Positions 7,125 to 61,410 are shown, counted from the stretch's first letter. The stretch: DNA of 64,000 nt from an uncultured Bacteriovoracaceae bacterium (GCA_964388905.1 CAYMDG010000001.1:7686-71685), one strand, 5' to 3'. Program-made: numbers and translations. Notes: a model not told the origin generated them from the letters alone.

Positions 7125-9374
7125 TTACGGGTGGTCCTGCATAAGCTTCTTGTAAAAGTCGGTCCCCCGTATGTTTTCAAGGTCCGGATCGTTTCTGAGC
7201 ACGGACCACTTGCTGAAACCCTTTCCGATAGCAGCCTGAAGGCTGCCCACCGCTTCATCCACCTTGTTCTGCCTGGCCTTTATGCAGGCTATGTTGTAAT
7301 ACGCATCAGGGTCATCAGGGTGTGCGGATGTCATCCTGTCGAGGTAGACCAGGGCCTTTTCATAGTCTCCTTTGCTCGAATTGAGGACTGCAAGGGCGTA
7401 CACGGCCTGCAGATCTTCCGGGTTTTTCCCCAGTGCAGCCTCTGCTGAGCGTATCTTTTTCTCGATGAGGTCCTTCTTTTGGGTTACAGCAATGAGGCCG
7501 GCAAGGGCTTCTCGAAAATCAGGCTGTACCTTGAGAATCTCGGAATATTCCCTGGCGGCAGCATCAAGCCTGTTGGACGCCGCATATGCGAATGCAAGCT
7601 TGTTCCTGACCTGAAAATTGCCGGGAATCAGAGCCAGGACATTGCGGTAATACCGGGCGGCCTGGTCGGCATCACCCATACTCATCAGGAGGTTCGCCAG
7701 GCTGTAATGGTAATCTGCCGAGCCGGGATTCAGGGCAAGGGCCGCCTTGTATTCATGCATCGAGTCTTTGAATTTCATCTGTGCCGCGAGGACAGAGGCA
7801 AGTCTTTCGTGGATCATGGGATCTTGTGGACTCAACTTCAGGGCTTCCCGGTAAAACGTTTCCGCTTCCTGGTTTCTGCCGAGCTTGTTGAGGGTATTGC
7901 CCATGCCGGTCTGTGAGGACACGTACTGCGGTCTAACCTGTATTGCCTTGGAGAAATACGACAGGGCCTTGTCATAATCGCCATTATAAAAGTAGGCGTT
8001 GCCCAGGGTGTCGTAAGAGATGAAGTTGGCCGGGTCAACATCGATCCCGTGCTCGAAGAAGGTGTAGTCATTCTTCCAGTAAGGCAGCTGAAGCGATATT
8101 TTCACCAGAAAGCCGCTGAGCACAATTGCGGTTGCGACAAGCACGCCAATCTTCAGAGCGGACCGGTTCGATACAAGATCGGCAAGGGACCAGGTGATGG
8201 CGATGAAGAGCCCGATATAGGGCACATAGGCCCAACGCTCGGCTATTGCCGGCCAGAGACCGCCTTGCATGAGTCCTGAAACAGGGACAAGGGTGCCCAG
8301 GAACCAGATCCAGCCCATGATGAGGTAAGGAGCTCTTGTCAGGAAGGCAAGGCAGACAATGGTGATGAGAAAGATGAGCAGCAGAGACCCGGTCACCTGC
8401 CATGCAGGCACAAAAACGGGGTAGGGGTAGAAAAAAGTTAAGTTTACGGGCCAGATCATTTTCCCGAGGTAGAGCGCATAGGAGACAATGGCCTGGGAAA
8501 TTCGCAGGCCCATGGGGACCTCGCCCGTAGAAATGACGAGCCCCACCGACTTGATGGATAATGACGAGAAATAGATGGCAGCAAGAGCGCCGGCGAGCAG
8601 GGGCAGCTTTTCAAGGATGACCATTGCATATGCGGATATGCCCGTTGCTCCCGGGAAATTTTTTTTATATTTCTCCGCCTGGTTCTCGCTCATGGGGAAT
8701 CCGATGCGTTTCAAAGGCCAGAAGTCCATGAGCAGGAGAACAAAGGGCAGGGTTACCAGCATGGGCTTTGCAAGGAGCCCGAGAACAAAGGTTGCTGCAA
8801 CCAGGATATATCTGCCGATGGTACTGCGTTCGGTGTAAAGGATATAGGTGTACATGGTCAGCATCCAGAAGGTGGTGCTGAGGATATTCTTTCTTTCTGC
8901 AACCCAGGCAACCGTATCTACATTTACCGGGTGGAATGCGAACAGTGCCGCAACGATGGCGCTTTTCCACACTGCGCCGGTTGCCTTTCTCAGGACAAGG
9001 AAGATCAGGAGGGCATTTATTGCATGGAAAAAGACGTTCATCAGGTGGTGCAGCCCTGCGTTCATATCGAAGAGCTGAGAGTCTATCATATGCGATATCA
9101 ATGACAGGGGGTGCCAGTAGATCTTTTCAACAGGCTTCGAGATCTGGAATGCCCAGGCGACGTTTTCAGCATTCAAACCGCTCTTCACGTGGGGATTGCC
9201 AAAGACATAGTGGTCATCGTCGAAGTGGAGAAACTCATGCCCGCCCACCGGCCAATAGACCGCAAAGGTGGTTATGAACAGGAAGAGGCATATAAGGAAG
9301 GCCTTATTTCCATCGATCATCTGTTTGAGTCCGTTCATATCAGTCATTTTTTTCATGATAACCCTATATATCAC
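7125..9374 (-). CDS. TMTC/PMT-like GT-C membrane glycosyltransferase with a C-terminal TPR array and the conserved terminal cap.
   Basis: Multi-TM N-terminal half with a first-loop acidic motif (LHFDDDHY) and the hallmark ALFAFHPVNVDTVAWVAERKN motif. C-terminal TPR repeats end in YYNIACIKARQ..EAV.SL..AIGKGF..W.VLRNDPDLENIR. Confidence 0.8.
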   Translation of the reverse strand: MIYRVIMKKMTDMNGLKQMIDGNKAFLICLFLFITTFAVYWPVGGHEFLHFDDDHYVFGNPHVKSGLNAENVAWAFQISKPVEKIYWHPLSLISHMIDSQLFDMNAGLHHLMNVFFHAINALLIFLVLRKATGAVWKSAIVAALFAFHPVNVDTVAWVAERKNILSTTFWMLTMYTYILYTERSTIGRYILVAATFVLGLLAKPMLVTLPFVLLLMDFWPLKRIGFPMSENQAEKYKKNFPGATGISAYAMVILEKLPLLAGALAAIYFSSLSIKSVGLVISTGEVPMGLRISQAIVSYALYLGKMIWPVNLTFFYPYPVFVPAWQVTGSLLLIFLITIVCLAFLTRAPYLIMGWIWFLGTLVPVSGLMQGGLWPAIAERWAYVPYIGLFIAITWSLADLVSNRSALKIGVLVATAIVLSGFLVKISLQLPYWKNDYTFFEHGIDVDPANFISYDTLGNAYFYNGDYDKALSYFSKAIQVRPQYVSSQTGMGNTLNKLGRNQEAETFYREALKLSPQDPMIHERLASVLAAQMKFKDSMHEYKAALALNPGSADYHYSLANLLMSMGDADQAARYYRNVLALIPGNFQVRNKLAFAYAASNRLDAAAREYSEILKVQPDFREALAGLIAVTQKKDLIEKKIRSAEAALGKNPEDLQAVYALAVLNSSKGDYEKALVYLDRMTSAHPDDPDAYYNIACIKARQNKVDEAVGSLQAAIGKGFSKWSVLRNDPDLENIRGTDFYKKLMQDHP

Positions 9375-9473: not shown

Positions 9474-10811
9474 ATGGGTAAAAAATGCCTGATTATCTCA
9501 GTAACAGCCTTTCTCTTATTTTATGCCGTGACAGTCCGGGCTCAGGACAGCCTCGCACAAAGAATAAGTACTGAAAAACCCCTCGCAGGCGTGGATACAA
9601 CCTTTTGGATTGAATCATCTTTTCAGGTGAGCCCTGATGTAAGACATACGGCATATATCGCAAAGGCAGGGGATATGCGTTACATGGTCGTGGACGGAGT
9701 AAAGGGGAAGCAGTACGATGGCGTCGCAACAGGCCGGCATGTGTTCAGCCCTGACAGCAAGCGGGTGGCATATATGGCAGTTACCGGTGAAAAGCAATGT
9801 GTAGTTGTAGATGGAAAAGAGGAGAAGCGCTACGATGGCATCTCTGTAACAGGCCCGGTATTCAGCCCTGACAATAAGCACGTGGCATACACTGCCCGGA
9901 CGGGCACAAACTGGTTTGTGGTTCACGACGGCAAGGAGGGCAAACCCTATAACGGCATCATGGATGGAACCCCCGTGTTCAGCCAGGACAGCTTGCATGT
10001 GGCATATGCAGCTGAAGTGGACTCTTTGTTTGGAGGAAAGAAATGGCTGGTGGTTGTGGATGGGAAAGAGGGAAAGCCCTACAAGGGCATTGCTGCAAGC
10101 GGCCCGGTCTTCAGCCCTGACAGCGGGAAAGTTGCATATGCAGCTCTTGCAGGGAAGAAATGGCTGATGGTGGAAGATGGTGTTGAAGGAAAGCTCTACG
10201 ATGACATCAAGGCCGGATCATACGTTTTCAGCGCAGACAGCCGGCACCTGGCATATGTGGTAAAGGTGAACGAAAGATATTCGGATAAATACCGGGTTGT
10301 GCTGGATGGGAAAGAACTGAAACTCTATGACAGCATCGGTAAGGGCACCCTGGTTTTCAGCCCTGACAGCGCTCGGTTGGCCTATGTTGCGAGCACGGGA
10401 GACAAATATTTTGTCGTTGCGGATGGGACAGAGGATGAGAAGAAGTTCCAGATCATCGGCGCTGGCAGCCTGACGATAAGTGATGACGGCAGGCACATGG
10501 CGTATGAAGTGCGGGTAGACAAAAAGTTCTCCGTAGTGCTCGATGGCAAAATGGGGAAGCTGTACGACGGTATCACCCTGAATTCACTGGTATTCAGTCC
10601 TGGCAGCGCACACCTGGCGTATGTAGCTCAAACAGAAAACAAAGAGGTTGTGGTGGTCGATGGGGTAGAGGGCAAGTCCTATGACGCGCTTGTCACTACG
10701 GGAGGGGGAAGGATTGTGTTTGATGGCCCGCATGCCTTTCATTACATTGTACGGAAAAATAAAACCCAGTTCTCTCTCATTGAAGAGAGTATCCAGGGCG
10801 GAAAGGATTAG
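9474..10811 (+). CDS. Secreted WG/PD40-like repeat protein, a paralog of 5511..7019.
   Basis: Signal peptide (LIISVTAFLLFYAVTVRAQD). ~10 tandem repeats of VFSPDSK.VAY.A..G.K...VVDGKEGK.YDGI. Confidence 0.65.
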   Translation: MGKKCLIISVTAFLLFYAVTVRAQDSLAQRISTEKPLAGVDTTFWIESSFQVSPDVRHTAYIAKAGDMRYMVVDGVKGKQYDGVATGRHVFSPDSKRVAYMAVTGEKQCVVVDGKEEKRYDGISVTGPVFSPDNKHVAYTARTGTNWFVVHDGKEGKPYNGIMDGTPVFSQDSLHVAYAAEVDSLFGGKKWLVVVDGKEGKPYKGIAASGPVFSPDSGKVAYAALAGKKWLMVEDGVEGKLYDDIKAGSYVFSADSRHLAYVVKVNERYSDKYRVVLDGKELKLYDSIGKGTLVFSPDSARLAYVASTGDKYFVVADGTEDEKKFQIIGAGSLTISDDGRHMAYEVRVDKKFSVVLDGKMGKLYDGITLNSLVFSPGSAHLAYVAQTENKEVVVVDGVEGKSYDALVTTGGGRIVFDGPHAFHYIVRKNKTQFSLIEESIQGGKD

Positions 10812-10942: not shown

Positions 10943-11608
10943 TTATTCGCTTCTCATTCTGCTTCTGAATCCTAGAAGTCCTAATATTCCTGATCCCAGC
11001 ATAATGATTGCTGGTGGGATGGGCACAGCAGGAGAGTTCGGTAGTGTGTTGGGAGGGACATATCCCAGGGTAAGCCTGAGCCGCTCAGACTGCCCGTATG
11101 TGTTCCCCAGTGTTGTCCATGTATGTAGATCTCCATCAATGGCATTTGCCACTGTGTTGGGGATTGCATTGTCGCCCAGGGCTGCAAAGCTCGCAACATA
11201 ATGGGAATAATCCTTAAGGCCGCCCAGGAAGTTCAGTTGCATTTCACAAATGTTCATTCCACCGCCATATGGGGCCTGCCCCAGGAACTGTGCCTCAATT
11301 GTAACATATTCGCCGGCCGGATTGAATGTTCCGTCTCCGTTCGAGTAGAAGACATCGTACAATTCAGAGCCGGGAACCCCCCAGAAGTCGAAGTAGCTGC
11401 TTGTAAGGGTGCCGTTCAATCTGGTCAGGAGTTGTTCACTCTGTATGTCGAAGGTATACGCCTTGGGGCCGCTTAGTAAGTTTGTGCTCTCCCAGAAGGT
11501 TATCGAGTATAAAGACGGCTTTTCATAGAACGGGGCCGCAAAAGAGATGCTTGAGACGAATATGCCTGCGAGGATTATGGTGATGACAGATAGTTTGTAC
11601 AGCCTCAT
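10943..11608 (-). CDS. Secreted protein with a PEP-CTERM-like C-terminal sorting signal (variant PIPP motif).
   Basis: N-terminal signal peptide (LSVITIILAGIFVSSISFAA). The C-terminus VPIPPAIIMLGSGILGLLGFRSRMRSE has Pro motif, hydrophobic helix and Arg-rich tail. Strong RBS (CCAAGGAGGG) upstream. Confidence 0.55.
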   Translation of the reverse strand: MRLYKLSVITIILAGIFVSSISFAAPFYEKPSLYSITFWESTNLLSGPKAYTFDIQSEQLLTRLNGTLTSSYFDFWGVPGSELYDVFYSNGDGTFNPAGEYVTIEAQFLGQAPYGGGMNICEMQLNFLGGLKDYSHYVASFAALGDNAIPNTVANAIDGDLHTWTTLGNTYGQSERLRLTLGYVPPNTLPNSPAVPIPPAIIMLGSGILGLLGFRSRMRSE

Positions 11609-11894: not shown

Positions 11895-12659
11895 TCAAGG
11901 ATTAAAGGCCATCTTGAGCTCCTCGCTGTCCGGGTAGCTGATCAGAACGGCTCGGTGAGGGCCATGAAAAACGAACATGCTGCCGGCCCCGGCTGCGGAT
12001 GCACCGCCTTCCTTTACCGATGCTTCCAAATCTTTTACACTTCCAGCCCCCCCGGAAGCTATAACGGGAATATTTACGATGCTCGTAATGCGTCTGATGA
12101 GATCGATGTCATAGCCTTTCATGGTTCCGTCGCGGTCGATTGAGTTGATGACCAGCTCACCTGCACCCATCTTTTCCATGTTTCTTGCAAAGACCGCGGG
12201 ATCGAATCCGGTTGATTTTCTGCCGCTGTGGGTGAACACCTCATACTTACCCCACAGATTTTTCTTCACATCTATTGAGACGACCACACTCTGGGAACCC
12301 ACAAGCTGTGATACCTCGGCGACGAAGGCGGGGTTCTCCACCGCAAGTGTGTTGATCACGACCTTTTCCACGCCAAGACCAAGGATAATCCTGACCTGGT
12401 CAAGATTCCTGATCCCACCGCCGTAGCCGAAGGGCATGAAGGCTTCGGTAGCAATCTTTTCGAGCAATATATATGGCGGCTCTTTGCCATCTATGGTTGC
12501 AGTAATGTCGAGGAAGACAATCTCGTCCACTTCCTTTTCATTGAAGATCTTGACAATATTGATAGGATCGCCGAGGTATTTCGGGTCTTTGAACTTAACG
12601 GTCTTGACAAGGCCCTGGTTTTTCAGAAGCAGGAAGGGTATGGCCCGGGGCATGAACAT
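11895..12659 (-). CDS. hisF: Imidazole glycerol phosphate synthase cyclase-subunit paralog (HisF/WbuZ-like) of glycan clusters.
   Basis: Clear HisF-family similarity (GGGIRNLDQVRIILGLGVEKVVINTLAVENPAFV...IPVIASGGAGS). It is paired with a HisH-like gene and lies near a WbuX-like amidotransferase. Confidence 0.85.
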   Translation of the reverse strand: MFMPRAIPFLLLKNQGLVKTVKFKDPKYLGDPINIVKIFNEKEVDEIVFLDITATIDGKEPPYILLEKIATEAFMPFGYGGGIRNLDQVRIILGLGVEKVVINTLAVENPAFVAEVSQLVGSQSVVVSIDVKKNLWGKYEVFTHSGRKSTGFDPAVFARNMEKMGAGELVINSIDRDGTMKGYDIDLIRRITSIVNIPVIASGGAGSVKDLEASVKEGGASAAGAGSMFVFHGPHRAVLISYPDSEELKMAFNP

Positions 12660-13283
12660 CTATGAGTTTTCCCATTGAGCAAAGTTATTAAGAAGAAGCA
12701 TCCCGAACTTGTGGCTCTTCTCAGGATGGAACTGAACGCCCAGAATATTCTGTTTCATGATCGCAGAAGAAAAAGAAAAGCCGTACTCTGTCCGGGCCAG
12801 TACATTCTGTTCGTGTACGCATTCCACATAGTATGAGTGGACGAAATAGAATCGGTTCTCCTTCTCAAGGCCGGCAAATACAGGATGCACTTGAGATACC
12901 TTAAGGGTGTTCCAACCCATATGGGGTATCTTGAGATTCGCGGAATCGCCTTCGAACTTGAAACGGATGCTCTCTGCATCCACCCAGCCAAGGCCGGGCA
13001 ACCCGCCTTCGGCGCTGCGGTTACCCATGAGCTGCATGCCCAAGCACACACCCAAGATGGGTGTTTTGTTTTCGAGTACCTTCTCGTTCAATACCGGGAT
13101 CAATCCCCTATCACGGATGTTTTTCATCCCGGTGTCAAAAGCGCCCACACCTGGCAGTATAAGTTTATCGGCTTTTTTAATCTCAGATACCTCTGATGTC
13201 ACCTTGGTTTTCACGCCTGCCTTCTTGAGCATGTTGGCCATGGAGCCGAGGTTGCCGAGACCGTAATCAATGATGGTAATCAT
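12660..13283 (-). CDS. hisH: Glutamine amidotransferase HisH/WbuY-like subunit.
   Basis: MITIIDYGLGNLGS...ILPGVGAF, class-I GATase motifs with a catalytic Cys context (GVCLGMQLM). Immediately adjacent to the HisF-like gene. Confidence 0.85.
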   Translation of the reverse strand: MITIIDYGLGNLGSMANMLKKAGVKTKVTSEVSEIKKADKLILPGVGAFDTGMKNIRDRGLIPVLNEKVLENKTPILGVCLGMQLMGNRSAEGGLPGLGWVDAESIRFKFEGDSANLKIPHMGWNTLKVSQVHPVFAGLEKENRFYFVHSYYVECVHEQNVLARTEYGFSFSSAIMKQNILGVQFHPEKSHKFGMLLLNNFAQWENS

Positions 13284-13370
13284 GAACGTGCCTTACCATA
13301 ACAAATGTACCAGAGCCATGCCATGTTGGAGAGGTGTGATGTTGAAAGACATCGCAGAATGCACCAGGGC

Positions 13371-14840
13371 TTATAGGAAACGCTGTCTGATCGTGGCGGC
13401 ATAGTGCTTCAGGAAAAGGACATCATCGGGTTCAAGGCAATAACGATATATAGCTGAAAGAAGGGACACAAGTATGAATGTGCCCGCAGCATACCTGTTC
13501 ATGAAAAATGAGCTTATGGCAAATATTGCAATGGCAAGGGCTGCGAGGACGGTGATATGCAGATACCATCTCAAATCTATCCGGAAATTTATGAAACGGG
13601 GCATCAAACTTGTGAACAAAAGAGTTCCGAACACCATAGAGAATGTGGTTGACAGTGCGGCCCCAGTAATCCCCATCAACGGGATCAGGATTAACATCAC
13701 GACGATGCTGGCAATCGACGCTAAGAGATCAAGGAGGAAAGCGATATTAGGCCTGCCTATGCCTGCGTAGAGACCTCCGATGGGTGCGTTGATACTGCCC
13801 CTAATTACCCTTCCTATGAGCAGAATGTACAGCGGAAGGATGGAGGGGATGAACTTATCGCCAAACAGGAGTGTAACCATGGGGATCGCGAAAAAACCGA
13901 TTGCCAGTCCCAAGGGAATATTAATCATGGTTGAGTACTTCATGCTCTTGTCCAGCATAATGTGGAACTGCTTGGCATCTGGTTTTGCGAAGAGCTCCGA
14001 GGTGGCGGGGTAGGTAATCCTCTGGATTGCAGCGGGGATAAGGTTGAGGATCAGGCTCAAGGTAATGGCCACACTGTAGAAGCCAACATCGGTTTTGGTG
14101 AGAAAAAAACCAATAAGGATAATATCGATATTCGTAGCAACGACATTCATGACATCACTGCCAAAGAGGAGGCTTCCATATCTCAGCAGGATGCAGCCCT
14201 TCTCCTTGATACCGGCGATGTCAAATCTGAATAACTGTTTTGCAGATGCGAGCGATATCAGGCTTGAACATACCATGCTGAAAACGAGCCCATAGATGGC
14301 TCCATTGAGGCCAAACCCCATACCTACGAGCACAATGGTGAACAGGATCATAGAGAGGCTCTGCAGCATGATCAGAGATGAGAAACGCCTCATCTTTCTC
14401 AATCCGTTCACAAGGGCGGCGGATGACTGGAAGATCGATGTAAAAGGGAAGATGATGGAAAGGATCTTGAGGAGACCTGCAAGCTCCGGCATATGGAAAA
14501 TCCTGGAAAATACTCCGGAGAGGATATACATTACAACACTTACAACAAGCCCAAAGAACATGGAACTCAGGATGCCGGTGGTTATATACTGGTTGAGATT
14601 TTTGTGATCGTCTAGATATTCGGCAGAAAACTTGATGATGGATGAGGGGATGCCGAAAGTAGCAGCCATAGCTGTCATGGAATAAATAGTAATGACCATC
14701 TGATAAAGGCCGAGATCCGATGCCCCGAGCCAGCGGGCGAGAAAGATCCTGAGGATGAAGCTTATGGGTATGGTGATAATTGAGCTGGCAAAGGCCCAGC
14801 TGACATCAATGGCGAATTTCCTAGCCTTAGGAGTAGTCAT
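13371..14840 (-). CDS. Wzx-like polysaccharide/oligosaccharide flippase (MOP superfamily).
   Basis: ~490 aa with 12-14 predicted TM helices. N-terminal pattern typical of the Polysacc_synt family (AIDVSWAFASSIITIPISFILRIFLARWLGASDLGLYQMV). Confidence 0.75.
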   Translation of the reverse strand: MTTPKARKFAIDVSWAFASSIITIPISFILRIFLARWLGASDLGLYQMVITIYSMTAMAATFGIPSSIIKFSAEYLDDHKNLNQYITTGILSSMFFGLVVSVVMYILSGVFSRIFHMPELAGLLKILSIIFPFTSIFQSSAALVNGLRKMRRFSSLIMLQSLSMILFTIVLVGMGFGLNGAIYGLVFSMVCSSLISLASAKQLFRFDIAGIKEKGCILLRYGSLLFGSDVMNVVATNIDIILIGFFLTKTDVGFYSVAITLSLILNLIPAAIQRITYPATSELFAKPDAKQFHIMLDKSMKYSTMINIPLGLAIGFFAIPMVTLLFGDKFIPSILPLYILLIGRVIRGSINAPIGGLYAGIGRPNIAFLLDLLASIASIVVMLILIPLMGITGAALSTTFSMVFGTLLFTSLMPRFINFRIDLRWYLHITVLAALAIAIFAISSFFMNRYAAGTFILVSLLSAIYRYCLEPDDVLFLKHYAATIRQRFL

Positions 14841-14903
14841 GGATGGCGGGATGTAAGTGTTTCAGATCTGAAGATTATCATTATGAAATTTGCTGAGTTC
14901 ACT

Positions 14904-41061: not shown

Positions 41062-41062
41062 G

Positions 41063-48918: not shown

Positions 48919-48919
48919 T

Positions 48920-52430: not shown

Positions 52431-53111
52431 TTATGCAAGACTATCCCTGGTGTTTTCCTGGCGCGGAGCATTCTTATAGCACCTCATGAAACACCCGGTT
52501 TGCGGCCGGTTGCTCACATTGTGAATGACATGGGCTTCTACATGAGGGAATATATCTTGTGCAATTCTCTTGTAGTCATCAGGAGACCTGACATGTTTTC
52601 CCCTATCCGTCAGGCTGATCCATCGTGAAATAAATCCCTGATTTTCGATTAAGGTGGGGTCTGCCGTAAACATGAACCCTGTGTCGCACAGGACCTTGGA
52701 CCCTAAGGCAAAGAGTTCCGCGGCCTCGAAGTCGTTAAGATGATGGAGAAGACCGTCAGCTATCACAATGTCGAACAGAGCGCTGCCGGAGATGGTGATG
52801 TCATTCACCCGCTGATTATAAAATACTGCCCGGCTACCGAATTTATTCCGGGCATATGCAATATATTCGGCGCTCAGATCATATCCCACATAGTGGACAT
52901 CAGGGGGCAGGAGGGTGAGGATATCGGCACAACCGCAACCGATATCCAGTATCCTTTTCCCGTGAACGGGTTTCAGAAATCGCTCCAGGCACATCCGGTA
53001 CTTCCCATGGCTGTTCATGAGGTATTGGAAAAAAAGGTAAACGGCCGGGAGTCTGAGTAATGAACGGAGCCCGCTTGTTACCTGGTCATTATTGTCAGGC
53101 ATCGATCCCAT
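52431..53111 (-). CDS. Class-I SAM-dependent methyltransferase.
   Basis: Motif I ILDIGCGCADIL and motif II/III context (DIVIADGLLHHL). Confidence 0.7.
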   Translation of the reverse strand: MGSMPDNNDQVTSGLRSLLRLPAVYLFFQYLMNSHGKYRMCLERFLKPVHGKRILDIGCGCADILTLLPPDVHYVGYDLSAEYIAYARNKFGSRAVFYNQRVNDITISGSALFDIVIADGLLHHLNDFEAAELFALGSKVLCDTGFMFTADPTLIENQGFISRWISLTDRGKHVRSPDDYKRIAQDIFPHVEAHVIHNVSNRPQTGCFMRCYKNAPRQENTRDSLA

Positions 53112-53147
53112 TGACTCGCTTTTAGCTATCTCCTGTTCTTGGCGGCA

Positions 53148-54122
53148 TCAGTCGAATATCTTCTCGATGATGTATGCTTGCCTGTTCCGGACCTGATCAA
53201 GGGTCCTCCATAAATACTCTCCGATAATCCCGAGCATGAGCATCTGAATCCCGGATAACACCAGAACGATGATCATGAGAGGCGCCCATCCTTGAATGGG
53301 CACTGAGCCGAAAATCCTTCCGAAAAATATAACGAAGGCATAGAGAAAACCGAACAGGGCTACAATCAAACCGGTTACTGACATGGCCCTCAGGGGGAAG
53401 TAGGAATAGCTCATCACGCCGTCAATGAGATATTTAAGCTTTTTGCTGAATGTCCACCTGGATATGCCGATAGAGCGTTTTTCCCTTTTATAGGGGATGA
53501 ATTTGATATCATACCCTGTCCACAATATCTGGCCCTGAAAGAAGGCATTGGTTTCCTGGTTTTCCAGGATGATGTTTTTTACCTTCTCACTCAGGAGAAC
53601 GTAATCAAATCCCTTTGCAGGCATGTTTGAAAAACTTAACCGTTTCATGATGTAGTAAAACACCTCAGAGGTGCCCCGCCTGAAGAGGGATTCGTCACGG
53701 GATTCTCGAGAGCATACAACGATGTGATAACCGTCCCTGAAGTGATGATCGAGCATGTCATTGATCAATTCGGGGGGGTCCTGCAGGTCGGCTGAGATCG
53801 AGATGACACACTTCCCCTTGGCAAGCTTATACCCCGCCATGATCGCCTGAAGTTGCCCGAAGTTTCGCACGAATTTGATTACCTTTACCACGCCGGGGTG
53901 TTCATTGCGAATTTCCATCAGCTCAGTAAAAGAATTGTCACCTGAACCGTCGTCTACAAAGATGACCTCTCCGGTTCTTCCAGGGTTTTTTCTGATGACC
54001 TTTTCTTCTATGGCCCGATAGATTGGTTTCAGGCTTCCCTCGTTGAAGTAAACCGGTATGACAATTGAGAAATCCACGTGCTCTTCACTCACCTGGCATC
54101 TTCTCCTTGATCTCTTTGCCAT
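53148..54122 (-). CDS. ArnC/GtrB-like GT2 polyprenyl-phosphate sugar synthase (two C-terminal TM helices).
   Basis: FSIVIPVYFNEGSL...VIFVDDGSGDNS...SADLQDPPELI and a C-terminal GIIGEYLWR. ATG chosen at 54122 because the track's first codon is TTG. Overlaps the upstream aminotransferase stop. Confidence 0.75.
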   Translation of the reverse strand: MAKRSRRRCQVSEEHVDFSIVIPVYFNEGSLKPIYRAIEEKVIRKNPGRTGEVIFVDDGSGDNSFTELMEIRNEHPGVVKVIKFVRNFGQLQAIMAGYKLAKGKCVISISADLQDPPELINDMLDHHFRDGYHIVVCSRESRDESLFRRGTSEVFYYIMKRLSFSNMPAKGFDYVLLSEKVKNIILENQETNAFFQGQILWTGYDIKFIPYKREKRSIGISRWTFSKKLKYLIDGVMSYSYFPLRAMSVTGLIVALFGFLYAFVIFFGRIFGSVPIQGWAPLMIIVLVLSGIQMLMLGIIGEYLWRTLDQVRNRQAYIIEKIFD

Positions 54123-55329
54123 GAAGAACAATAAAGCGCATCAGCGAGCATATTGAATCGATATCGTCATGGCTCACCGATGACCCTGTCGGGAGACTTA
54201 TTACGCGTGAGAGGACCTTGTCCGTGCTTGGCAACAAAAGACCTGCATGGGGGAAATATGATCGGTAAGGTTCCATTTTATGGCAGCCGGGATAGAAATA
54301 GCGTCTGACCAGGATATTCTCACCCTGGAGTATCCTGACGATCTGATCGCGTGAAAGGTGCATCTGATTCTCGTCAACCTCGATTATAACATACTGATAG
54401 TTAGGCAGATTATCCGGTATGTACGCCAGGCATGTCAACCCGGGGACGGTTTCCAGGTTGTCCCGGTACCGGAAGTAATTCACACGATTGATCGCCACTA
54501 CCTCATCAAGGCTGTCGATGGATGCCAAACCCATTGCAGCCGACACCTCGTTCATCTTTCCGTTCGTGCCTATGTATATGACATTGTCATAGCCCATGAA
54601 CCCGAAGTTTTTCATCAGGCGTACCTTCAAGGCCAGATCATCATTGTTGGTGACCACGGCACCGCCTTCCAAGGTATTGATGAATTTCGTGGCATGGAAA
54701 CTGAAGACCTCGGCTTCCCCGAAATTACCCACCATCTTTCCGTTATGCCTGCATGAAAAGGCATGGGCGGCATCGTAGAGTACCTTCAGGTGATGCCTGC
54801 GCGCGATCTCATCGATGGCTTGTGTATCGCAGGGACGTCCCCAGAGGTGGACCCCGATTATCCCGGTCGTCCGGGGAGTTATCATGCGCTCAATCTGAGC
54901 GGGGTCGATGGTATGGGTCCTTTCATCTATGTCGCAAAAGACAGGGGTGATGGCCTGCCACTGCAAGGCGTGCGCTGTAGCAATAAAGGTGGCTGAAGGG
55001 ATGATCACTTCACCGGTCAGCCCAAGTGCACGGATCACAATTTCCAGAGCCACAGTACCGTTGCACATGGCGATGCAGTGTTTTACGCCGATCAATTCCG
55101 CGACCCTCTTTTCAAACTCCTGAACAAAGGGACCGTTGTTGGTAAGCCACTGGTTGTCTATGATGGTATTGATGCGATCGAGAAATCCTTTACGGTTGAT
55201 AATGTTCGGACGGCCGACATGAATCTTCTCTGAAAAGGCCGCCGGGCCGCCGAATATCTCCAGGTCTGCTATATTCTTTTTGACAGCGTTTTCGCGGGGC
55301 AAGGCATTCTCCCTTTCAAATAAAGTCAA
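54085..55329 (-). CDS. DegT/DnrJ/EryC1/StrS-family sugar aminotransferase (ArnB/PglE-like).
   Basis: PLP-enzyme motifs (HCIAMCNGTVALEIV, IPSATFIATAHAL, SFHATKFINTLEGGAVV). Confidence 0.85.
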   Translation of the reverse strand: MTLFERENALPRENAVKKNIADLEIFGGPAAFSEKIHVGRPNIINRKGFLDRINTIIDNQWLTNNGPFVQEFEKRVAELIGVKHCIAMCNGTVALEIVIRALGLTGEVIIPSATFIATAHALQWQAITPVFCDIDERTHTIDPAQIERMITPRTTGIIGVHLWGRPCDTQAIDEIARRHHLKVLYDAAHAFSCRHNGKMVGNFGEAEVFSFHATKFINTLEGGAVVTNNDDLALKVRLMKNFGFMGYDNVIYIGTNGKMNEVSAAMGLASIDSLDEVVAINRVNYFRYRDNLETVPGLTCLAYIPDNLPNYQYVIIEVDENQMHLSRDQIVRILQGENILVRRYFYPGCHKMEPYRSYFPHAGLLLPSTDKVLSRVISLPTGSSVSHDDIDSICSLMRFIVLHGKEIKEKMPGE

Positions 55330-55427
55330 ATTTCACACAAACCAGTGAAAGGACAGTCCTTTCTTACTCTAACGGATCGGTTAAACTGAAAAAAATATCA
55401 AATAATAATCTGTGAATCCTGATAACC

Positions 55428-56027
55428 TCAAAGTTTCCTGCGCAGACCTCTGGGGATGTAATCCCCCTGATCGTCGAATAATTCTCTCATCAGACGATCC
55501 TCCAGTTGAAGGATCTCATCCTTTGGTCTTGGCTTGATCTCTTTGCATGGGGAGCCCGCATAGACTGTCCAGGCCCTGCAATCTTTTGTTACCAGTGAAT
55601 TAGCGCCGATTGCGGCACCTTCACCGATAGTGATTCCAGGCAGTACTACGGAATTCGCCCCGATTATTGCATGCTTCCCTATGTGCACAAAGGACCGGAC
55701 AGGTACCCGGTATGGATGCGGAACAGACGGGTTTGTGAGGTATTTCCCTGAATAATCCTCATTGCCGGTATAGATCCTTACCCCGCTTGAAAGTCCGGCA
55801 AAGTCATGCATCGTGAATTCGCCGCCGCCGGTTATGGAGGTGAAGGATCCGATATGAATGAAATTGCCCAGAATGCTTTTTTTGCCTCCCATGAAAAATA
55901 CAAAATCATCTATGATGACAGAGTTCCCAATGAAAATTACCTCGGGATAAATGATTTTTGCCTGGGGCCAGATGAGAACATCCTGGCCTCTGGCTGCAAG
56001 AGGTAGTGACTCGGCTTGATTTGTCAT
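55428..56027 (-). CDS. Hexapeptide-repeat (LbH) acetyltransferase, PglD/WbpD-like amino-sugar N-acetyltransferase candidate.
   Basis: IGNSVIIDDFVFF..IGKHAIIGANSVVLPGITIGEGAAIGANSLV repeats, ~200 aa. First gene of a minus-strand operon with the aminotransferase and GT2. Confidence 0.7.
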   Translation of the reverse strand: MTNQAESLPLAARGQDVLIWPQAKIIYPEVIFIGNSVIIDDFVFFMGGKKSILGNFIHIGSFTSITGGGEFTMHDFAGLSSGVRIYTGNEDYSGKYLTNPSVPHPYRVPVRSFVHIGKHAIIGANSVVLPGITIGEGAAIGANSLVTKDCRAWTVYAGSPCKEIKPRPKDEILQLEDRLMRELFDDQGDYIPRGLRRKL

Positions 56028-56321: not shown

Positions 56322-58568
56322 ATGGATAATATCGAAATGTCAACCGACAAGCAGCAGCGTCTCGTTTTTGGCTTATCGCTCATCATCTTTTGTATTGCCG
56401 CTGTTACCGGGTGGGTGAAACTTCGCTATGGTTTCAATTTCATTGATGAGGGCTATCACATGACCGAGGCCTGGCGGCTTACCGCAGGCGATGATTTCTT
56501 CAAGGACAAATTCACCGGGGCATTGAGGGCTTCAACATTGTTGAATTACCTCGTTTTCAAGGTTTACCCGGCAATTACCTTGCTTGGGTTTCGTGAGCTT
56601 CAGCATGTTCTTACCCTTGCGTCATTGTTGCTCCTGAGTTACGCGCTTTTCCTTGTCAACAGGCAATACTGGTATCAGCCGCTCATTTTTTCCGTTTTTG
56701 CCTTTGTCGGACTTGACCCTGTCGGCATGATATCCAACATCTATTATCAGACATATCCGCACCTGTTTATCACCGTGCATCTGGCTTTTTTCATCATGGG
56801 ATTGCACCAGGAATCTCAGACGGCCAAAAGGGTGTTATATGTCATGTCGGGCATTTCCCTGTGGCTTATCAGTTTCAGCCTGCTGCATATGAGTCTTGTT
56901 GTCCTCTCTCCGGTAGCGGTGTTTCTCCTATTCAAAGCCCTGAAGATAAAATCTCCGGACTTCTCTTTTTCAGATCTCTGTTTTGTCCTGGCCCCGGTTC
57001 TCCTTTTTTGGGCATTTTTCATCGGGCTCTTCAATAAACCGTTTATTGATAATGTACTCTCATCGATTCAGTTGATCCTCTCTACATCGACCCATGCCGC
57101 CGGAACACTTGTCTCGATTAACAAGGAGGCGATGAAACATATAGGCATTACCGTACCTTTTATTATTGCCGGCATTTTTATCTTGAAGATAAACAAAATA
57201 GCCGTTCTCTGCGGTGCAATGAGCATTCTTGCACTCTTAATGTATTTCGTCATCGATACGGCATTCTTCGGATTGATTAACCCTTACTATAACGGCTGGT
57301 TTGACCGGCCCATGTGGCTGGTAGCACTGCTGGTATCATCGTACTTCATTTCATTGTGTTATTTCATGTGGAAGGTTCTGAACAGGAAGCAACTGGACAA
57401 CCTTGAGATATATTCCATGATCCTGTTTATTCCCGGCATCATCATGGCGATAAGCAGCAGCATTTTTTCCGCTCTGGGCATCCTGACCGTGCTGCATGCA
57501 TCCATACCTGCTGTTGCAGCCATAACGCTTTTATTCCTGTCCATGAAGACCATAACAAAGCGATCATATATGGAGAAGTTCATTGTCCTTCTCTTGTTTT
57601 TTGCACCTTTTTATTACACAAGCGCATGGTCCGACTGGAGATTCACCTTTTTCGATGTAACCCCTGAACAAGCCACGGTTGAGATAGATAAAGGGTTCGG
57701 CAGAGGAATAAAGACGAATCAGGTTTACAAGGATCTCTACGAGTGGATCGGTAACATCTCGGAAAAGTACTCGAAGAAAGATGATTTTATTATTTCCTAT
57801 GTCGTCTCTCCCATGGTGCACATGATTTCCCGGCGAAGACCTTCACTGGATGATCCATTTATAAATTTCATAGAGGTTCCCCCGGATTACTATGTAAAGG
57901 CAATTGCCTTCATGAGAGAAAGAAGGCGCGAACCACGGCTGGCATTCGTGTTTGAGGGAATGCCCGGACTTTTGCCCATTTCTCTGGAAGATGGCACCTT
58001 CAAGTGGATCGACAAACAGTTCTCTTTCCCTTCCAGAGAGCCGGTGTCGGACTATGTAGCGAAGAATATGATCCCTCTCGATATGTTTCACCTCACCGAT
58101 GGCCTGAACGTGAAATGCTTTATCGACAGATCGTACGCATTGGAAGAAGGCTTAAAATCCAATCCTGCCAATCCGGAGCTTAATGTACGGTTGGGAATCC
58201 TGTATCAGAAACGAGGGGATATCGATAATGCTCTCCGGTTCTACAAGACAGCCCTGGAGTCCAATCCCGGCTTTATTCAGGCGCTCCAGAACCTGGCAGC
58301 AGCGTATTCCCTCAAAGGGAATAATGAAGCGGCACTGCAGGCCTTGAAACGGATCATCACTATCGACCCGGACCGCAATGACACGTATTATAATATTGCG
58401 TGCCTCTATGCGAAGCAGCGGCAAACCGATGTTTCGGTTGCCTGGCTCCGGAAGGCTGTGGAGAAAGGCTTCAAGGATTGGCACCTCCTCAAGACTGACC
58501 ATGATGTGGATAACATCAGAACCACTGAATATTACAAGGAAATCATGATCAAAAATGCTGCTGAATAA
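56322..58568 (+). CDS. Polytopic membrane protein (putative GT-C/ArnT-like) with TPR and cap. Paralog of 50111..52387.
   Basis: GFNFIDEGYHMTEAWRLTAGDD. Cap YYNIACLYAKQRQTDVSVAWLRKAVEKGFKDWHLLKTDHDVDNIR. Confidence 0.6.
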   Translation: MDNIEMSTDKQQRLVFGLSLIIFCIAAVTGWVKLRYGFNFIDEGYHMTEAWRLTAGDDFFKDKFTGALRASTLLNYLVFKVYPAITLLGFRELQHVLTLASLLLLSYALFLVNRQYWYQPLIFSVFAFVGLDPVGMISNIYYQTYPHLFITVHLAFFIMGLHQESQTAKRVLYVMSGISLWLISFSLLHMSLVVLSPVAVFLLFKALKIKSPDFSFSDLCFVLAPVLLFWAFFIGLFNKPFIDNVLSSIQLILSTSTHAAGTLVSINKEAMKHIGITVPFIIAGIFILKINKIAVLCGAMSILALLMYFVIDTAFFGLINPYYNGWFDRPMWLVALLVSSYFISLCYFMWKVLNRKQLDNLEIYSMILFIPGIIMAISSSIFSALGILTVLHASIPAVAAITLLFLSMKTITKRSYMEKFIVLLLFFAPFYYTSAWSDWRFTFFDVTPEQATVEIDKGFGRGIKTNQVYKDLYEWIGNISEKYSKKDDFIISYVVSPMVHMISRRRPSLDDPFINFIEVPPDYYVKAIAFMRERRREPRLAFVFEGMPGLLPISLEDGTFKWIDKQFSFPSREPVSDYVAKNMIPLDMFHLTDGLNVKCFIDRSYALEEGLKSNPANPELNVRLGILYQKRGDIDNALRFYKTALESNPGFIQALQNLAAAYSLKGNNEAALQALKRIITIDPDRNDTYYNIACLYAKQRQTDVSVAWLRKAVEKGFKDWHLLKTDHDVDNIRTTEYYKEIMIKNAAE

Positions 58569-58595: not shown

Positions 58596-59195
58596 ATGAA
58601 GCGAAGACTTCCTTACATGATTACATTGATGTTGTTGGTCCTGTCGGCATGCTCCAAACAACAGACCCAGGAGGGTGAGGCCTATTTCCCCAGGGTCACC
58701 AAGGGGGCGCAATGGGAATATTTATTGAAGTATGTAACCCCAAAAGGTGACGTGGTCGACGGAAGGTTGTTGGTCCGGGTTGAAGGGGAGGAAACCATAG
58801 GGGGGAAAAAGTATCAGAAAAATATCAGCACCATCACCGGGTTACCCGGCGCTAAACCTCAATCCACCTACACAAGAAGGACTGAAAAGGGCATCTACAG
58901 GTTAGAAGGAGACAAGCAGGACTATCTAGTTACACCCTTTCCGGTTTCAGTCGGAAACACATGGAAAACGCAGTCACCCGATGGAGAGATCCAATTTATG
59001 GCAGAGAAAATTGAGACGGTGAAAATATTGAACAAGGAATATAAAGATGCCCTCAAAGTATCTTTTCACGGTGAAAAAAAATCGAGCCATATAGAAGGCT
59101 ACTCATACTTTTCAGCAGGTGTGGGTGAACTCATGACCAATATGAAAGTAGGAGATGCCATTATAGAGTATGTCCTGGATAAGTATAAATTATAA
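58596..59195 (+). CDS. Predicted lipoprotein of unknown function.
   Basis: Signal peptide with lipobox (LLVLSAC-S), ~200 aa, soluble. Confidence 0.5.
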   Translation: MKRRLPYMITLMLLVLSACSKQQTQEGEAYFPRVTKGAQWEYLLKYVTPKGDVVDGRLLVRVEGEETIGGKKYQKNISTITGLPGAKPQSTYTRRTEKGIYRLEGDKQDYLVTPFPVSVGNTWKTQSPDGEIQFMAEKIETVKILNKEYKDALKVSFHGEKKSSHIEGYSYFSAGVGELMTNMKVGDAIIEYVLDKYKL

Positions 59196-59199: not shown

Positions 59200-61410
59200 C
59201 TAATGGGTAGAAGCGGGAATCTGTTCATTCATCAGATCCCTGACAAAGGCAGTCTTTCTGATATTCTCAAGGTCAGGGTCTTTCTTGATCAGATCCCAGT
59301 TATTAAAGCCTTTTTCAATTGACTGTTTCAACCACCTGATGGATTCATCGGGCATGTCCTGTTTCGCATAGAGGCAGGCAAGATTATAATAGACTTCGGG
59401 GTTGTCAGGCTGTGAGAGTTTCATTTCAAGCAATACATCAAGAGCCTTAGCGTATTCCTGCCTTTGCGAATAGACGAGAACAAGTCCATAGGAGGCCTTG
59501 ACAGAGTCGGATTGAACCGAGATAGCCGCGTGATAACGGGCAATTGCCTGATCGTCTTCACCCAGCTGGCGATAAACATCTCCAAGCCTGGTGAGAAGAA
59601 CAGGATTACGGGGTTGAATCTTCAGCTCTTCCAGTATTCTTGTGATCAGTCCTTCAAGGTTTCTCTGTGCTGCCCTGGCTTTTTCCAAGTCGTTCATTGC
59701 TTCAACATACCCCGGCTTCTCGTGAATCGCTTTCTCATAATATTCTATGGCCTTTTTTAAGTTGCCTTTCCTGAAAAATGCTATCCCAATATTATAATAT
59801 ATACCAGGCTGATGCGGATCCATCCTCGCTTGTTCCAGATAGCTCTTGATCGCTTCATCATAATTCCCTTTTGCAATCAGAACATTCCCGAGGTTGTTAC
59901 GGATATAGCCACTTTGTTGTGGGTTGATCCTTAAACAAGTGCGGTATTCAGCAGCGGCCTCATCGTAGTGGCCGCCGCTGTAGAGGGCGTTCCCGAGATT
60001 ATAATGTGCGTCAAGATAATAAGGTTTGATCTTTACAGATTGACGGTACTCGTGAATGGCACCCTCTATATCTCCTTTCTGAGAAAGGGCAAGCCCAAGG
60101 CCATTATGTGCCATAAAGTTGTCCCTGGTTACCGCAAGGGTGTGGGTGAAGAGCATTTCGGAATTTTTCCAATACCCCACCTGAATCCAGGTCAGTACCA
60201 TCAGAACAAGGAGGATTCCAGGCATTGCTATTACGGCGGCAGTCTTAAAATATCTCCATCTTCCCAACAGTTCGGGTACCCCCCAGCAGACAGCAATGAA
60301 TACGCCGATATACGTGAGGTATGCATAACGGTCTGCAAGTTCAGGCCACAAGCCTGCCTGGAAAAGGCCGAGGAAGGGGACAAGGCCGCCGAGAAACCAA
60401 AGCCAGCCCACAAGAAGATACGGATGACTCAGTACAGTCCGCAGGGCAAGTATTGTCACCAGCACCAGGACAAGAACCGCACCGGTAATCTGCCAGAAGG
60501 GGATCATGTCGGGGTAGGGATAGAAAACCGCCAGATTAGCGGGCCAGAAGAGATTGCCCAGGTATTTTATAGTGGAGACCAGTGCATTTGAAATGCGAAG
60601 ACCCATGGGCGCAAACTCGGCGCCATATAAACCCATACGCTGGTTGGCACCGAGCAGGTTGCTTGCCAGGGAGGCAAATGAGAGAGCCAGGAAAGGGATC
60701 TTTTCAATTATCAGGTTCAAAATGGGCGTGCCTGAGGTTCTCAGCGCCCAAGACTTATCATTTTCATCTTTCCTTTCGATTTGAAGCCTCTTGAGAGGCC
60801 AGAGATCAAGCAGCAGCATGATAAAAGGGAGAGTCATGATAGCGGGCTTGGCCAGCAGACCGAGTTCGAATATCAGCAGAACCAGGAGGTACCTTTTCCA
60901 GCCGGATTTCCTGACATAAAAGAGGTATGCCAGCAATGTCAGCATAAAGAAGAGGCCGCTCAGGACATTGTTCAGTTCCGCTATCCATGCGACCGACTCC
61001 ACATTAATGGGGTGGAGGGCGAACAAGGCACCTACAAAAGCACTCTTCCAGAATTCTCCGGTCGTGTTTTTCAGCAGGGAAAATAGCAGAGCACTGCTGG
61101 CGACATGAAGGGCAAGCATCAGAACATGGAATGCTCCCGGATTTAATCCGAAGACCGCATGGAACGCGGTGTAGGCAAACCAGGTGAGCGGCGCACACCA
61201 GGATTCTGGGCTGAAAGACCAAACAAGATTCTTCCAGCTGAGCCCTGAAAGGACATGGACCTGTTCGGTAAGCTGCAAAGGGTCGTCTATGTGAACAAAG
61301 CCATTGCCGGCCATTCGGGAATATACGAGAGTCGTAGATAGGGTCAAGAAGAGATAGAACAGGAGATTTTGATAACTGACTACGAGCCGGCGGATGGTTC
61401 CCATCTTCAT
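59200..61410 (-). CDS. TMTC/PMT-like GT-C membrane glycosyltransferase with TPR and cap. Closest paralog of 18453..20822.
   Basis: FVHIDDPLQLTEQVHV, ALFALHPINVESVAWIAELNN, cap YYNLACLYAKQDMPDESIRWLKQSIEKGFNNWDLIKKDPDLENIR. Confidence 0.8.
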   Translation of the reverse strand: MKMGTIRRLVVSYQNLLFYLFLTLSTTLVYSRMAGNGFVHIDDPLQLTEQVHVLSGLSWKNLVWSFSPESWCAPLTWFAYTAFHAVFGLNPGAFHVLMLALHVASSALLFSLLKNTTGEFWKSAFVGALFALHPINVESVAWIAELNNVLSGLFFMLTLLAYLFYVRKSGWKRYLLVLLIFELGLLAKPAIMTLPFIMLLLDLWPLKRLQIERKDENDKSWALRTSGTPILNLIIEKIPFLALSFASLASNLLGANQRMGLYGAEFAPMGLRISNALVSTIKYLGNLFWPANLAVFYPYPDMIPFWQITGAVLVLVLVTILALRTVLSHPYLLVGWLWFLGGLVPFLGLFQAGLWPELADRYAYLTYIGVFIAVCWGVPELLGRWRYFKTAAVIAMPGILLVLMVLTWIQVGYWKNSEMLFTHTLAVTRDNFMAHNGLGLALSQKGDIEGAIHEYRQSVKIKPYYLDAHYNLGNALYSGGHYDEAAAEYRTCLRINPQQSGYIRNNLGNVLIAKGNYDEAIKSYLEQARMDPHQPGIYYNIGIAFFRKGNLKKAIEYYEKAIHEKPGYVEAMNDLEKARAAQRNLEGLITRILEELKIQPRNPVLLTRLGDVYRQLGEDDQAIARYHAAISVQSDSVKASYGLVLVYSQRQEYAKALDVLLEMKLSQPDNPEVYYNLACLYAKQDMPDESIRWLKQSIEKGFNNWDLIKKDPDLENIRKTAFVRDLMNEQIPASTH

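Follow-up and report, generated by a model that had tools for sequence, protein, structure and literature searches.

A bacterial locus in which TMTC-like and other TPR-bearing membrane proteins adjoin candidate lipid-sugar donor synthases

Introduction

Animal TMTC1-4 (CAZy GT105) are protein O-mannosyltransferases of the endoplasmic reticulum (ER) that act on cadherins. From which donors, and to which acceptors, might bacterial relatives of these enzymes transfer sugars? The question is raised by a 64,000-nucleotide stretch of DNA from an uncultured Bacteriovoracaceae bacterium (GCA_964388905.1 CAYMDG010000001.1:7686-71685; hereafter the window), whose closest relatives carry the names Desulfobacteraceae, Desulfobacterales or Thermodesulfobacteriota. 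An initial annotation had reported six TMTC-like proteins of glycosyltransferase fold C (GT-C) bearing tetratricopeptide repeats (TPRs), three further membrane-TPR proteins and four glycosyltransferase family 2 (GT2) enzymes thought to make polyprenyl-phosphate sugars. We find that the window encodes at least eight predicted membrane sugar-transferases of the GT-C, lipid-linked-donor type, six of them related to animal TMTC. The reading to which we incline, with modest confidence, is that the region is an envelope-glycosylation island with several 'three-component-like' periplasmic glycosylation cassettes and proteins as likely acceptors. Chance is not at issue for the cluster, because the genes are homologous.

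Results

Six window proteins related to animal TMTCs

Genes and proteins are named here by the first coordinate of their reading frames (Table 1). All 13 open reading frames (ORFs) listed by the initial annotation are present with the ends reported there; for one GT2 gene, whose longest ORF is 39451-41061, the start at 39601 is likelier, given its ATGA overlap with the stop of 38654-39604. Nine large proteins are built alike, with a hydrophobic N-terminal part of ~430-600 residues followed by TPRs (Pfam E 1e-14 to 1e-52 in all nine).

A profile made from six animal TMTC1-4 N-domain sequences (PMC7801869 supplement 2) matches all six TMTC-like proteins, with E values (for a nominal database of one million sequences) from 4e-23 to 7e-15, and has no match to 24924, 50111, 56322 or 27124. 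A combined alignment of the window and animal sequences is colinear across the whole N-domain at 21-33% identity, and 22250 is the window protein closest to the animal enzymes. The division into at least three subfamilies is borne out by N-domain identities of 45-52% within 7125/41681/44000, 61% between 18453 and 59200, and 21-23% between 22250 and the rest. In Pfam searches of the membrane parts, run with the TPRs removed, PMT_2 (cut-off 26.1 bits) is exceeded by 41681 (35.5 bits) and 59200 (26.5 bits) and just missed by 7125 (25.4 bits); 44000 and 18453 have no PMT_2 match, and 22250 gets a sub-threshold DUF6056 match instead. NCBIfam holds no model for the six proteins. Searches of Protein Data Bank (PDB) sequences with single members and with a profile of the family found no match, the full-length profile returning TPR proteins only.

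The motif scheme proposed for TMTCs includes M1 (DD), M3, M4 (KE(T/Q)xxT), M5 (DW) and M7 (ERxxY), with the Lys of M4 assigned to phosphate binding and the Glu to metal binding (PMC7801869). M1 is retained in all six window proteins and takes the form F.DD, ~40-65 residues from the N-terminus and just past the first hydrophobic helix, as had been described. The HPxHTEAV of TMTCs aligns with HP.NV(D/E)(T/S)VAW in the window; the longer hallmark that was claimed for all six, HP.NV[DE][ST]VAW.AE, occurs in five (44000 having L where V or I had been given) and is replaced in 22250 by HPLHTQSVSYIVQR. The M3 Arg is retained in four of the six and the M4 Lys in all, the adjoining Glu being kept only in 22250 (KEISVT) and replaced by Pro in the other five (AKPxxxTLPF). 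The DNPA core of DUF1736 is missing from all six and the DW of M5 from five, 22250 having DY at that place. M7 persists as ERWAY, DRYxY or EHRTY. The last of these belongs to 22250, which also retains HPLHTQSV and LDYDF. All of 62 homologues have D43, D44, K191 and Y370, and at least 90% of them have R367, a pattern that argues for retained catalysis and phosphate binding. Judged by sequence, the six proteins are a divergent bacterial branch of the TMTC lineage that keeps the predicted positions for catalysis and phosphate binding and has no DUF1736 region; five of them also lack the proposed metal site.

Predicted fold and topology

An AlphaFold2 model of 41681, computed from 62 sequences (mean pLDDT 90.2), has the GT-C fold when compared with known structures; together with the TMTC profile matches, it upholds the assignment of the HP.NV-type proteins to this class. 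The model of 50111 (pLDDT 92) is also of GT-C fold, with 13 helices, an acidic pair past helix 1 and a periplasmic C-terminal domain. Its best structural matches are Pmt4, ArnT and Pmt2, at 8-10% sequence identity in the structural alignments. An ArnT/PMT_2 likeness had been proposed for 50111 and its paralogue 56322: it stands for the fold, as modelled for 50111, and fails for sequence, neither protein matching PMT_2, PMT or ArnT models. The acidic motifs ascribed to the three further membrane-TPR proteins are present, DE at residues 45-46 of 50111 and 42-43 of 56322, and DGD at residues 37-39 of 24924.

A crude hydropathy helix counter gave inconsistent helix numbers, and the helices of the models were used instead. 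With the N-terminus inside, the 11 membrane helices of 41681 leave 12 Lys/Arg in 55 cytoplasmic loop residues versus 9 in 128 on the opposite side, and the 13-helix model has 10 in 44 residues on the cytoplasmic side versus 4 in 102 on the other. The helix numbers and the positive-inside counts would place loop 1 and the TPRs in the periplasm, as the initial annotation had supposed. In the 41681 model the conserved motifs and the TPR array all lie on the outer side, and this topology agrees with the 11-helix, lumenal-TPR model of TMTCs (PMC7801869).

Donor synthases and sugar-gene cassettes

All four of the proposed lipid-sugar synthases match Pfam Glycos_transf_2 above threshold, and three are clearly related to ArnC, GtrB or DPMS (Table 1). 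For the GT2 domain of 39601 the best match is the Pyrococcus furiosus dolichyl-phosphate-mannose (Dol-P-Man) synthase 5mlz (E 6e-19), with ArnC next. The assignment is weaker for 20904, whose NCBIfam scores, 78 bits for a full-length AglJ match and 62 bits for PpgS, are far under the cut-offs.

The donor genes stand among genes for sugar nucleotides. In the plus-strand run 37543-52387 all genes point the same way and are separated by at most ~100 bp, in the order Gmd, Fcl-like, 39601, WcaF-type acetyltransferase, 41681, 44000, 46328, GNAT, methyltransferase, WecE and 50111. A minus-strand cassette (52431-56027) of acetyltransferase, DesI-like aminotransferase, 53148 and methyltransferase is divergent from 56322. 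The gene for 20904 lies directly upstream of 18453 on the same strand and is divergent from the run 22250-24924-27124, and 36217, the sole flippase candidate for the three-component cassettes in the window, is divergent from gmd. The genes at 11895-17283 resemble a standard Wzx-type pathway for a glycan with an acetamidino sugar; they include a WbuX N-acetyl-sugar amidotransferase (274 bits, cut-off 203).

Table 1. Features of the window, grouped by kind, with positions, strand and the basis of each assignment.
Feature	Positions	Strand	Basis
TMTC-like GT-C + TPR protein A, 749 aa, subfamily 1	7125-9374	-	TMTC profile E 7e-15; DD, HPVNVDTVAWVAE; Pfam TPR
TMTC-like GT-C + TPR protein B, 738 aa, subfamily 1, structure modelled	41681-43897	+	PMT_2 35.5 bits
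TMTC-like GT-C + TPR protein C, 742 aa, subfamily 1	44000-46228	+	TMTC profile E 3e-18; motifs present
TMTC-like GT-C + TPR protein D, 789 aa, subfamily 2	18453-20822	-	TMTC profile E 3e-16; IDD, HPANVESVAWIAE
TMTC-like GT-C + TPR protein E, 736 aa, subfamily 2	59200-61410	-	PMT_2 26.5 bits; TMTC profile E 5e-17
TMTC-like GT-C + TPR protein F, 857 aa, subfamily 3	22250-24823	+	TMTC profile E 4e-23, best of six
Family H: predicted 13-helix GT-C + periplasmic alpha/beta domain + TPR, 758 aa	50111-52387	+	Model fold
Family H paralogue, 748 aa, 41% identical to 50111, divergent from 53148 cassette	56322-58568	+	
Family G: polytopic + soluble domain + TPR, 726 aa, candidate glycosyltransferase	24924-27104	+	DGD past first membrane helix
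Family J: polytopic, 683 aa	27124-29175	+	Begins 19 bp past 24924
Candidate polyprenyl-phosphate hexose synthase, AglJ/PpgS-like GT2 + three C-terminal hydrophobic segments	20904-21857	-	Pfam GT2 E 1e-25
S-adenosylmethionine (SAM)-methyltransferase fused to DPMS-like GT2, 486 aa from 39601, no membrane helix	39601-41061	+	Pfam methyltransferase + GT2
ArnC/GtrB-type polyprenyl-phosphate glycosyltransferase, GT2 + 2 C-terminal membrane helices	46328-47275	+	Full-length: ArnC 9bhc E 3e-51, GtrB 5ekp E 2e-40
GtrB/ArnC-type polyprenyl-phosphate glycosyltransferase, GT2 + 2 C-terminal membrane helices	53148-54131	-	Full-length: GtrB 5ekp E 8e-59, ArnC E 3e-35
GDP-mannose 4,6-dehydratase (Gmd)	37543-38661	+	TIGR01472 581 bits, cut-off 415
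GDP-L-fucose synthase-like (Fcl)	38654-39604	+	NF047922 480 bits, cut-off 500
Hexapeptide (WcaF-family) acetyltransferase	41063-41656	+	
GNAT acetyltransferase, weakly WecD-like	47272-48015	+	
SAM-dependent methyltransferase	48037-48918	+	
dTDP-4-amino-4,6-dideoxygalactose transaminase (WecE)	48920-50071	+	NF008687 609 bits, cut-off 375
SAM-dependent methyltransferase	52431-53111	-	
DesI/VioA-like dTDP-4-keto-6-deoxyglucose 4-aminotransferase	54085-55329	-	TIGR04427 528 bits, cut-off 650
Hexapeptide acetyltransferase	55428-56027	-	
Flippase-like domain protein (LPG_synthase_TM), candidate lipid-linked-sugar flippase	36217-37314	-	PF03706 E 3e-45; TIGR00374 89.7 bits, cut-off 43
HisF/HisH-like pair, Wzx flippase, GT56 (WecF-like), WbuX amidotransferase	11895-17283	-	
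MBOAT acyltransferase + two paralogous TPR-ended proteins	30880-35384	+	

Rfam and tRNA scans of the window gave no matches, and a promoter/terminator scan of 36-53 kb was uninformative. The island is flanked by genes for a C39-peptidase-like stand-alone protein, an outer-membrane beta-barrel protein, a FadL/TodX-type channel and two PD40 (beta-propeller repeat) proteins (1698-7019 and 9474-10811, both plus strand). At its far end, 964 bp (61411-62374) with no ORF longer than 91 aa, no Rfam match and no tRNA separate the last TMTC-like gene from an HpnA-like (hopanoid-associated) sugar epimerase at 62375-63367.

Membrane families G, H and J

Family H, represented by 50111 and 56322, has 91 homologues, nearly all in metagenome-assembled genomes (MAGs) of Desulfobacterales type. 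Its membrane part has no match in Pfam (E ≤ 1) or NCBIfam (E ≤ 0.01), none being found among 33 family members, and the family profile retrieved nothing from PDB sequences. On the strength of the 50111 model, family H is a GT-C family missing from Pfam. A predicted lipoprotein of 199 aa (58596-59195, plus strand), with a signal sequence ending in LSAC and no family match, is encoded 28 bp after 56322. Family G (24924) has 247 homologues, and the membrane part of 24924 matches nothing in Pfam, NCBIfam or PDB; it is probably a second GT-C family missing from Pfam. The main argument for a transferase role is that the GT-C partner varies behind a constant donor cassette (see below). Family J (27124) comprises 212 representative clusters at E ≤ 1e-3, with no Pfam or PDB match for 27124 itself; one homologue matches DUF2298. 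No significant similarity emerged when profiles of the TMTC-like, G, H and J families were compared with one another.

Could some of 24924, 27124, 50111 and 56322 instead be polymerases, ligases or oligosaccharyltransferases (of Wzy, WaaL, PglB or PglL type) that move undecaprenyl-diphosphate-linked oligosaccharides? In favour, a Wzx is encoded in the island and no Wzy or WaaL was recognised in the window, and a profile of 27124 and its homologues has as its best PDB match the C-terminal domain of archaeal AglB, at an insignificant E of 0.28. The closest structural neighbours of 50111, however, are monosaccharide transferases with phosphate-linked donors, the conserved neighbour of family H is always an ArnC-type monophosphate-donor synthase, even fused to an aminotransferase, and no WWDxG-type motif was seen by eye in the protein sequences, no pattern search having been made. 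We therefore regard oligosaccharide transfer as very improbable.

A shared C-terminal module

The same module of ~55 residues, P(D/E)xP..YYN(I/L)(A/S)C...WL..A..KGF..W.LL..D.DL.N(I/L)R, ends all 11 TPR proteins of the window: the six TMTC-like proteins, family G, the two family-H proteins and the two proteins that follow the MBOAT gene. In 18453 it lies ~60 residues before the C-terminus. The two MBOAT-associated proteins match the NCBIfam model 'TPR end-of-group' at 59-60 bits (cut-off 32), and in the other nine the match was judged by eye. Membrane enzymes whose families are unrelated in sequence thus carry one targeting-type module, which fits a common partner or acceptor class. The MBOAT gene itself spans 30880-32301 and is followed by the genes for two paralogous ~500-aa proteins (32195-33814 and 33897-35384), whose N-terminal ~390 aa have no family match.

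Some other products of the region have features of exported proteins. Two DUF6160 proteins are encoded at 790-1677 (plus strand) and, inside the island, at 29414-30616 (minus strand), the second with a weak match to the NCBIfam model 'putative pilus system protein FilA' (38 bits, far under the cut-off). They may be secreted fibre subunits and, as such, possible candidate acceptors. A 221-aa protein (10943-11608, minus strand) begins with a signal-like sequence and ends in a hydrophobic helix and then RSRMRSE, a C-terminus that resembles a PEP-CTERM/VPDSG-CTERM sorting signal (Pfam E 0.08 only). A PEP-CTERM protein is also encoded near the family-H genes of one related locus (L002).

Conservation in other genomes

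The HP.NV-type family is very large, with at least 8,000 candidates, of which the 120 best listed are all at least 49% identical. A scan of one genome per species confirmed at least 597 TMTC-like relatives, in Desulfobacterales, Syntrophia, Nitrospina, Planctomycetota, Verrucomicrobiota, Acidobacteriota, Chlorobiaceae and Geobacter. Among 51 loci of at least 15 kb, 21 have at least two and 14 at least three TMTC-like genes within 10 kb. Genomes with such arrays include a Geobacter MAG (L075) and two Smithella loci from MAGs (L040 and L060). The idea that the clustering of six paralogues is in itself unusual was ruled out, tandem arrays being typical of the family.

Linkage of GT2 and GT-C genes is kept in ten of the related loci (L001, L002, L003, L005, L006, L014, L030, L040, L085 and L086). 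Orthologues of the methyltransferase-GT2 fusion, 59-70% identical, directly adjoin TMTC-like genes in seven of them (L003, L005, L006, L014, L030, L040 and L085), which span Desulfobacterales and Smithella/Syntrophales; L030 is from a member of the Smithellaceae and has five TMTC-like genes, and L040 is from Smithella. The window order is repeated in L014 (GT2c, represented in the window by 46328, then WecE-gmd-fcl-methyltransferase/GT2-TMTC-like), and the acetyltransferase after the fusion gene is kept in L003 and L085. In L085 the orthologue of 20904 (77% identical) is divergent from a 22250-like gene, and the gmd/flippase-like divergent pairing is also present. Other flippase-type genes occur in these relatives, GtrA in L003 and EamA in L085.

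The amino-sugar cassettes are conserved as well. In L001 (5452-7521) and L002 (502-2571) a gene that adjoins family-H genes encodes a 689-aa fusion of an ArnC-type GT2 and a DegT aminotransferase, which joins sugar amination to lipid loading. Methyltransferase, acetyltransferase, and FdtA or WbqC genes lie near family H in these loci, and in L001 an MBOAT and TPR pair stands beside it. The series GT2c (77% identical to 46328)-GNAT-WecE recurs in L085 and L086, but the gene after it there belongs to family G, whereas in the window it belongs to family H. The L086 copy is an isolated four-gene cassette in an unrelated context.

Discussion

From the observed homology, fold, predicted topology and conserved gene order we infer donors, a flipping step, catalysis and the nature of the acceptor along the following lines. 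In the cytoplasm, Gmd and Fcl would provide GDP-L-fucose, WecE with the GNAT protein would provide dTDP-Fuc4NAc, and the DesI-like aminotransferase with a hexapeptide acetyltransferase would provide a sugar of the N-acetyl-viosamine type. Dedicated GT2s (46328, 53148, 39601 and perhaps 20904) would each load one sugar on undecaprenyl phosphate. The lipid-linked monosaccharide would then be flipped, for which 36217 is the candidate, relatives having GtrA or EamA instead. On the periplasmic face, the six TMTC-like, the two family-H and probably the family-G proteins would transfer the sugar to an acceptor with the help of the loop-1 Asp pair, and the C-terminal TPR array with its 'end-of-group' module may select that acceptor. 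The multi-donor, multi-transferase periplasmic glycosylation system proposed in the initial annotation is supported by these data, and neither of the sequence-level findings that it had named as contrary (HP.NV-type proteins without GT-C likeness, or cytoplasmic TPRs) was made.

Several observations weigh against the island model. DUF1736 (PF08409), the Pfam hallmark of TMTC, is matched at E ≤ 1 by none of the six TMTC-like proteins, and PMT_2 exceeds its cut-off in two. Both proposed TMTC metal ligands are lost in five of the six, and in these five the KP in place of KE and the lack of DW and DNPA suggest that the chemistry may differ from that of TMTC. No solved relative was found for 20904, and no GtrA, ArnE/F, EamA or MATE flippase gene was found in the window, intergenic small ORFs included. 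A Dpm1/ArnC-like GT2 lies within 10 kb in 12 of 80 TMTC-like loci and in 5 of the 51 of at least 15 kb, and the GT2-linked TMTC-like loci are confined to Thermodesulfobacteriota/Syntrophia-type genomes. Paralogue arrays are therefore normal for the family, and donor-synthase linkage is lineage-specific (21 versus 5 of the 51 loci). TPR domains also serve as scaffolds in polysaccharide export, so that their presence does not by itself make the acceptor a protein.

The loss of the metal ligands and of the DUF1736 core, the frequency of arrays without a GT2 and the occurrence of solitary TMTC-like copies in unrelated contexts would all suit an alternative in which the five HP.NV-type proteins are uncoupled from the neighbouring GT2s, perhaps as scaffolds, chaperones or enzymes that draw on a housekeeping donor from elsewhere, their presence reflecting the tendency of the family to form tandem arrays. 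Such proteins would hardly be expected to keep the Asp pair, Lys191 and Tyr370 invariant and Arg367 nearly so, or to be encoded immediately beside the methyltransferase-GT2 fusion in seven loci from Desulfobacterales to Smithella/Syntrophales, and we consider the alternative unlikely.

In the island model, proteins of the periplasm or surface are the most likely acceptors, by analogy with the GT-Cs with TPRs that have been characterised: TMTC1-4 and TfpW act on proteins (PMC7801869; bioRxiv 10.1101/2020.04.19.049825). Glycan acceptors are a strong rival, possible in our judgement but with less to commend them: the same machinery would decorate O-antigen or exopolysaccharide (EPS) repeat units, core or lipid A after export, as Gtr and ArnT enzymes do, and the TPRs would dock not onto substrate proteins but onto the apparatus that assembles or exports polysaccharide. 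Wzx, a WecF-like GT56, the WbuX amidotransferase trio and an MBOAT are encoded in the island as well; ArnC/GtrB-type GT2s classically pair with GT-Cs that modify glycans or lipid A (PMC11127046); families G and H swap behind one donor cassette in the manner of serotype-specific Gtr enzymes; and family H resembles ArnT in overall build. Set against this, the characterised glycan-modifying GT-Cs have carbohydrate-binding or no extra domains (PMC11127046), and TMTC-like genes are often distant from any glycan locus (L004, for example).

A more far-reaching version of the island model, about which we are doubtful, is a TPR-guided network of periplasmic protein modification. At least nine GT-Cs from at least three sequence-unrelated families and an MBOAT acylation system, all sharing one end module, would draw on at least three or four undecaprenyl-phosphate monosaccharide donors (of fucose/methyl-fucose, Fuc4NAc and Qui4NAc type) to O-glycosylate distinct sets of envelope proteins, as a bacterial counterpart, and possibly ancestor, of metazoan TMTC O-mannosylation.

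The island offers a testable bacterial counterpart of a pathway that has hitherto been studied in animals alone. No experimental study of a bacterial TMTC homologue came up in literature searches, although there are at least 8,000 close relatives in many Gram-negative phyla. A candidate donor for the TMTC-like proteins is the product of the methyltransferase-DPMS fusion that adjoins the GDP-fucose genes, and an Arn-like logic is suggested for two membrane families absent from Pfam, one of GT-C fold in its model. If the acceptors are proteins, this would be general O-glycosylation via monosaccharide lipid donors in diderm bacteria, with implications for how the animal TMTC pathway arose; if they are glycans, three-component seroconversion systems would be extended to TPR-bearing enzymes and amino-deoxy sugars.

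How does the island compare with known systems? The six proteins resemble TMTC1-4 in their predicted build, a GT-C domain of ~11 membrane helices preceding TPRs that face the lumen or periplasm; they are homologous to TMTC1-4 throughout the N-domain and have the loop-1 DD, HPxH/N, M4 Lys and M7 Arg/Tyr in common with them. They differ in the absence of DUF1736 (DNPA, DW), in KP for KE in five and in their low identity. They are also bacterial and occur in paralogue arrays, and their donors are likely undecaprenyl-phosphate 6-deoxy or amino sugars, whereas the TMTC donor is Dol-P-Man. Full-length prokaryotic homologues of TMTC had already been noted (PMC7801869).

TfpW of Pseudomonas aeruginosa, a pilin D-arabinofuranosyltransferase, is a GT-C with a periplasmic TPR domain. 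By its description it likewise has ~11 membrane helices, a periplasmic DD-type loop 1 and C-terminal TPRs; its donor is a polyprenyl-phosphate monosaccharide whose synthesis is encoded nearby, and its acceptor is a protein (bioRxiv 10.1101/2020.04.19.049825). The tfpW gene adjoins pilA, whereas no pilin gene is adjacent in the window, and the donor pathways differ.

The three-component systems (GtrA/GtrB/Gtr-type, ArnC/ArnEF/ArnT and GT136 pentofuranose) are well studied. In these too an ArnC/GtrB-type GT2 makes a lipid-monophosphate sugar that a GT-C uses in the periplasm, the genes are tightly linked, and one conserved set of donor genes can be combined with different GT-Cs (PMC11127046). 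The combination of aminotransferase, GT2 and GT-C follows the logic of ArnB/ArnC/ArnT. Unlike these systems, the window has several cassettes and at least nine candidate transferases in one island, its GT-Cs carry TPR arrays that Gtr and Arn enzymes do not, it has no GtrA, ArnEF or MATE gene, and GT-C family H (as modelled) and the candidate family G are not in Pfam. From ArnT (GT83) and PMT (GT39), 50111 and 56322 differ in having no sequence match to PMT_2, ArnT or any PDB chain, in their extra TPR tail and in a structural-alignment identity as low as that given above. The initial description of such systems as uncharacterised in Gram-negative bacteria was thus overstated, since TfpW and the Gtr, Arn and pentofuranose systems have been characterised. 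Already known, then, are prokaryotic TMTC homologues, TfpW as a Gram-negative GT-C with TPRs and the three-component logic; new are concrete donor cassettes for bacterial TMTC-like enzymes, family H and, as a probable second GT-C family outside Pfam, family G, the loss of the metal site in most of the paralogues and the TPR end module that they share with the other membrane enzymes of the island.

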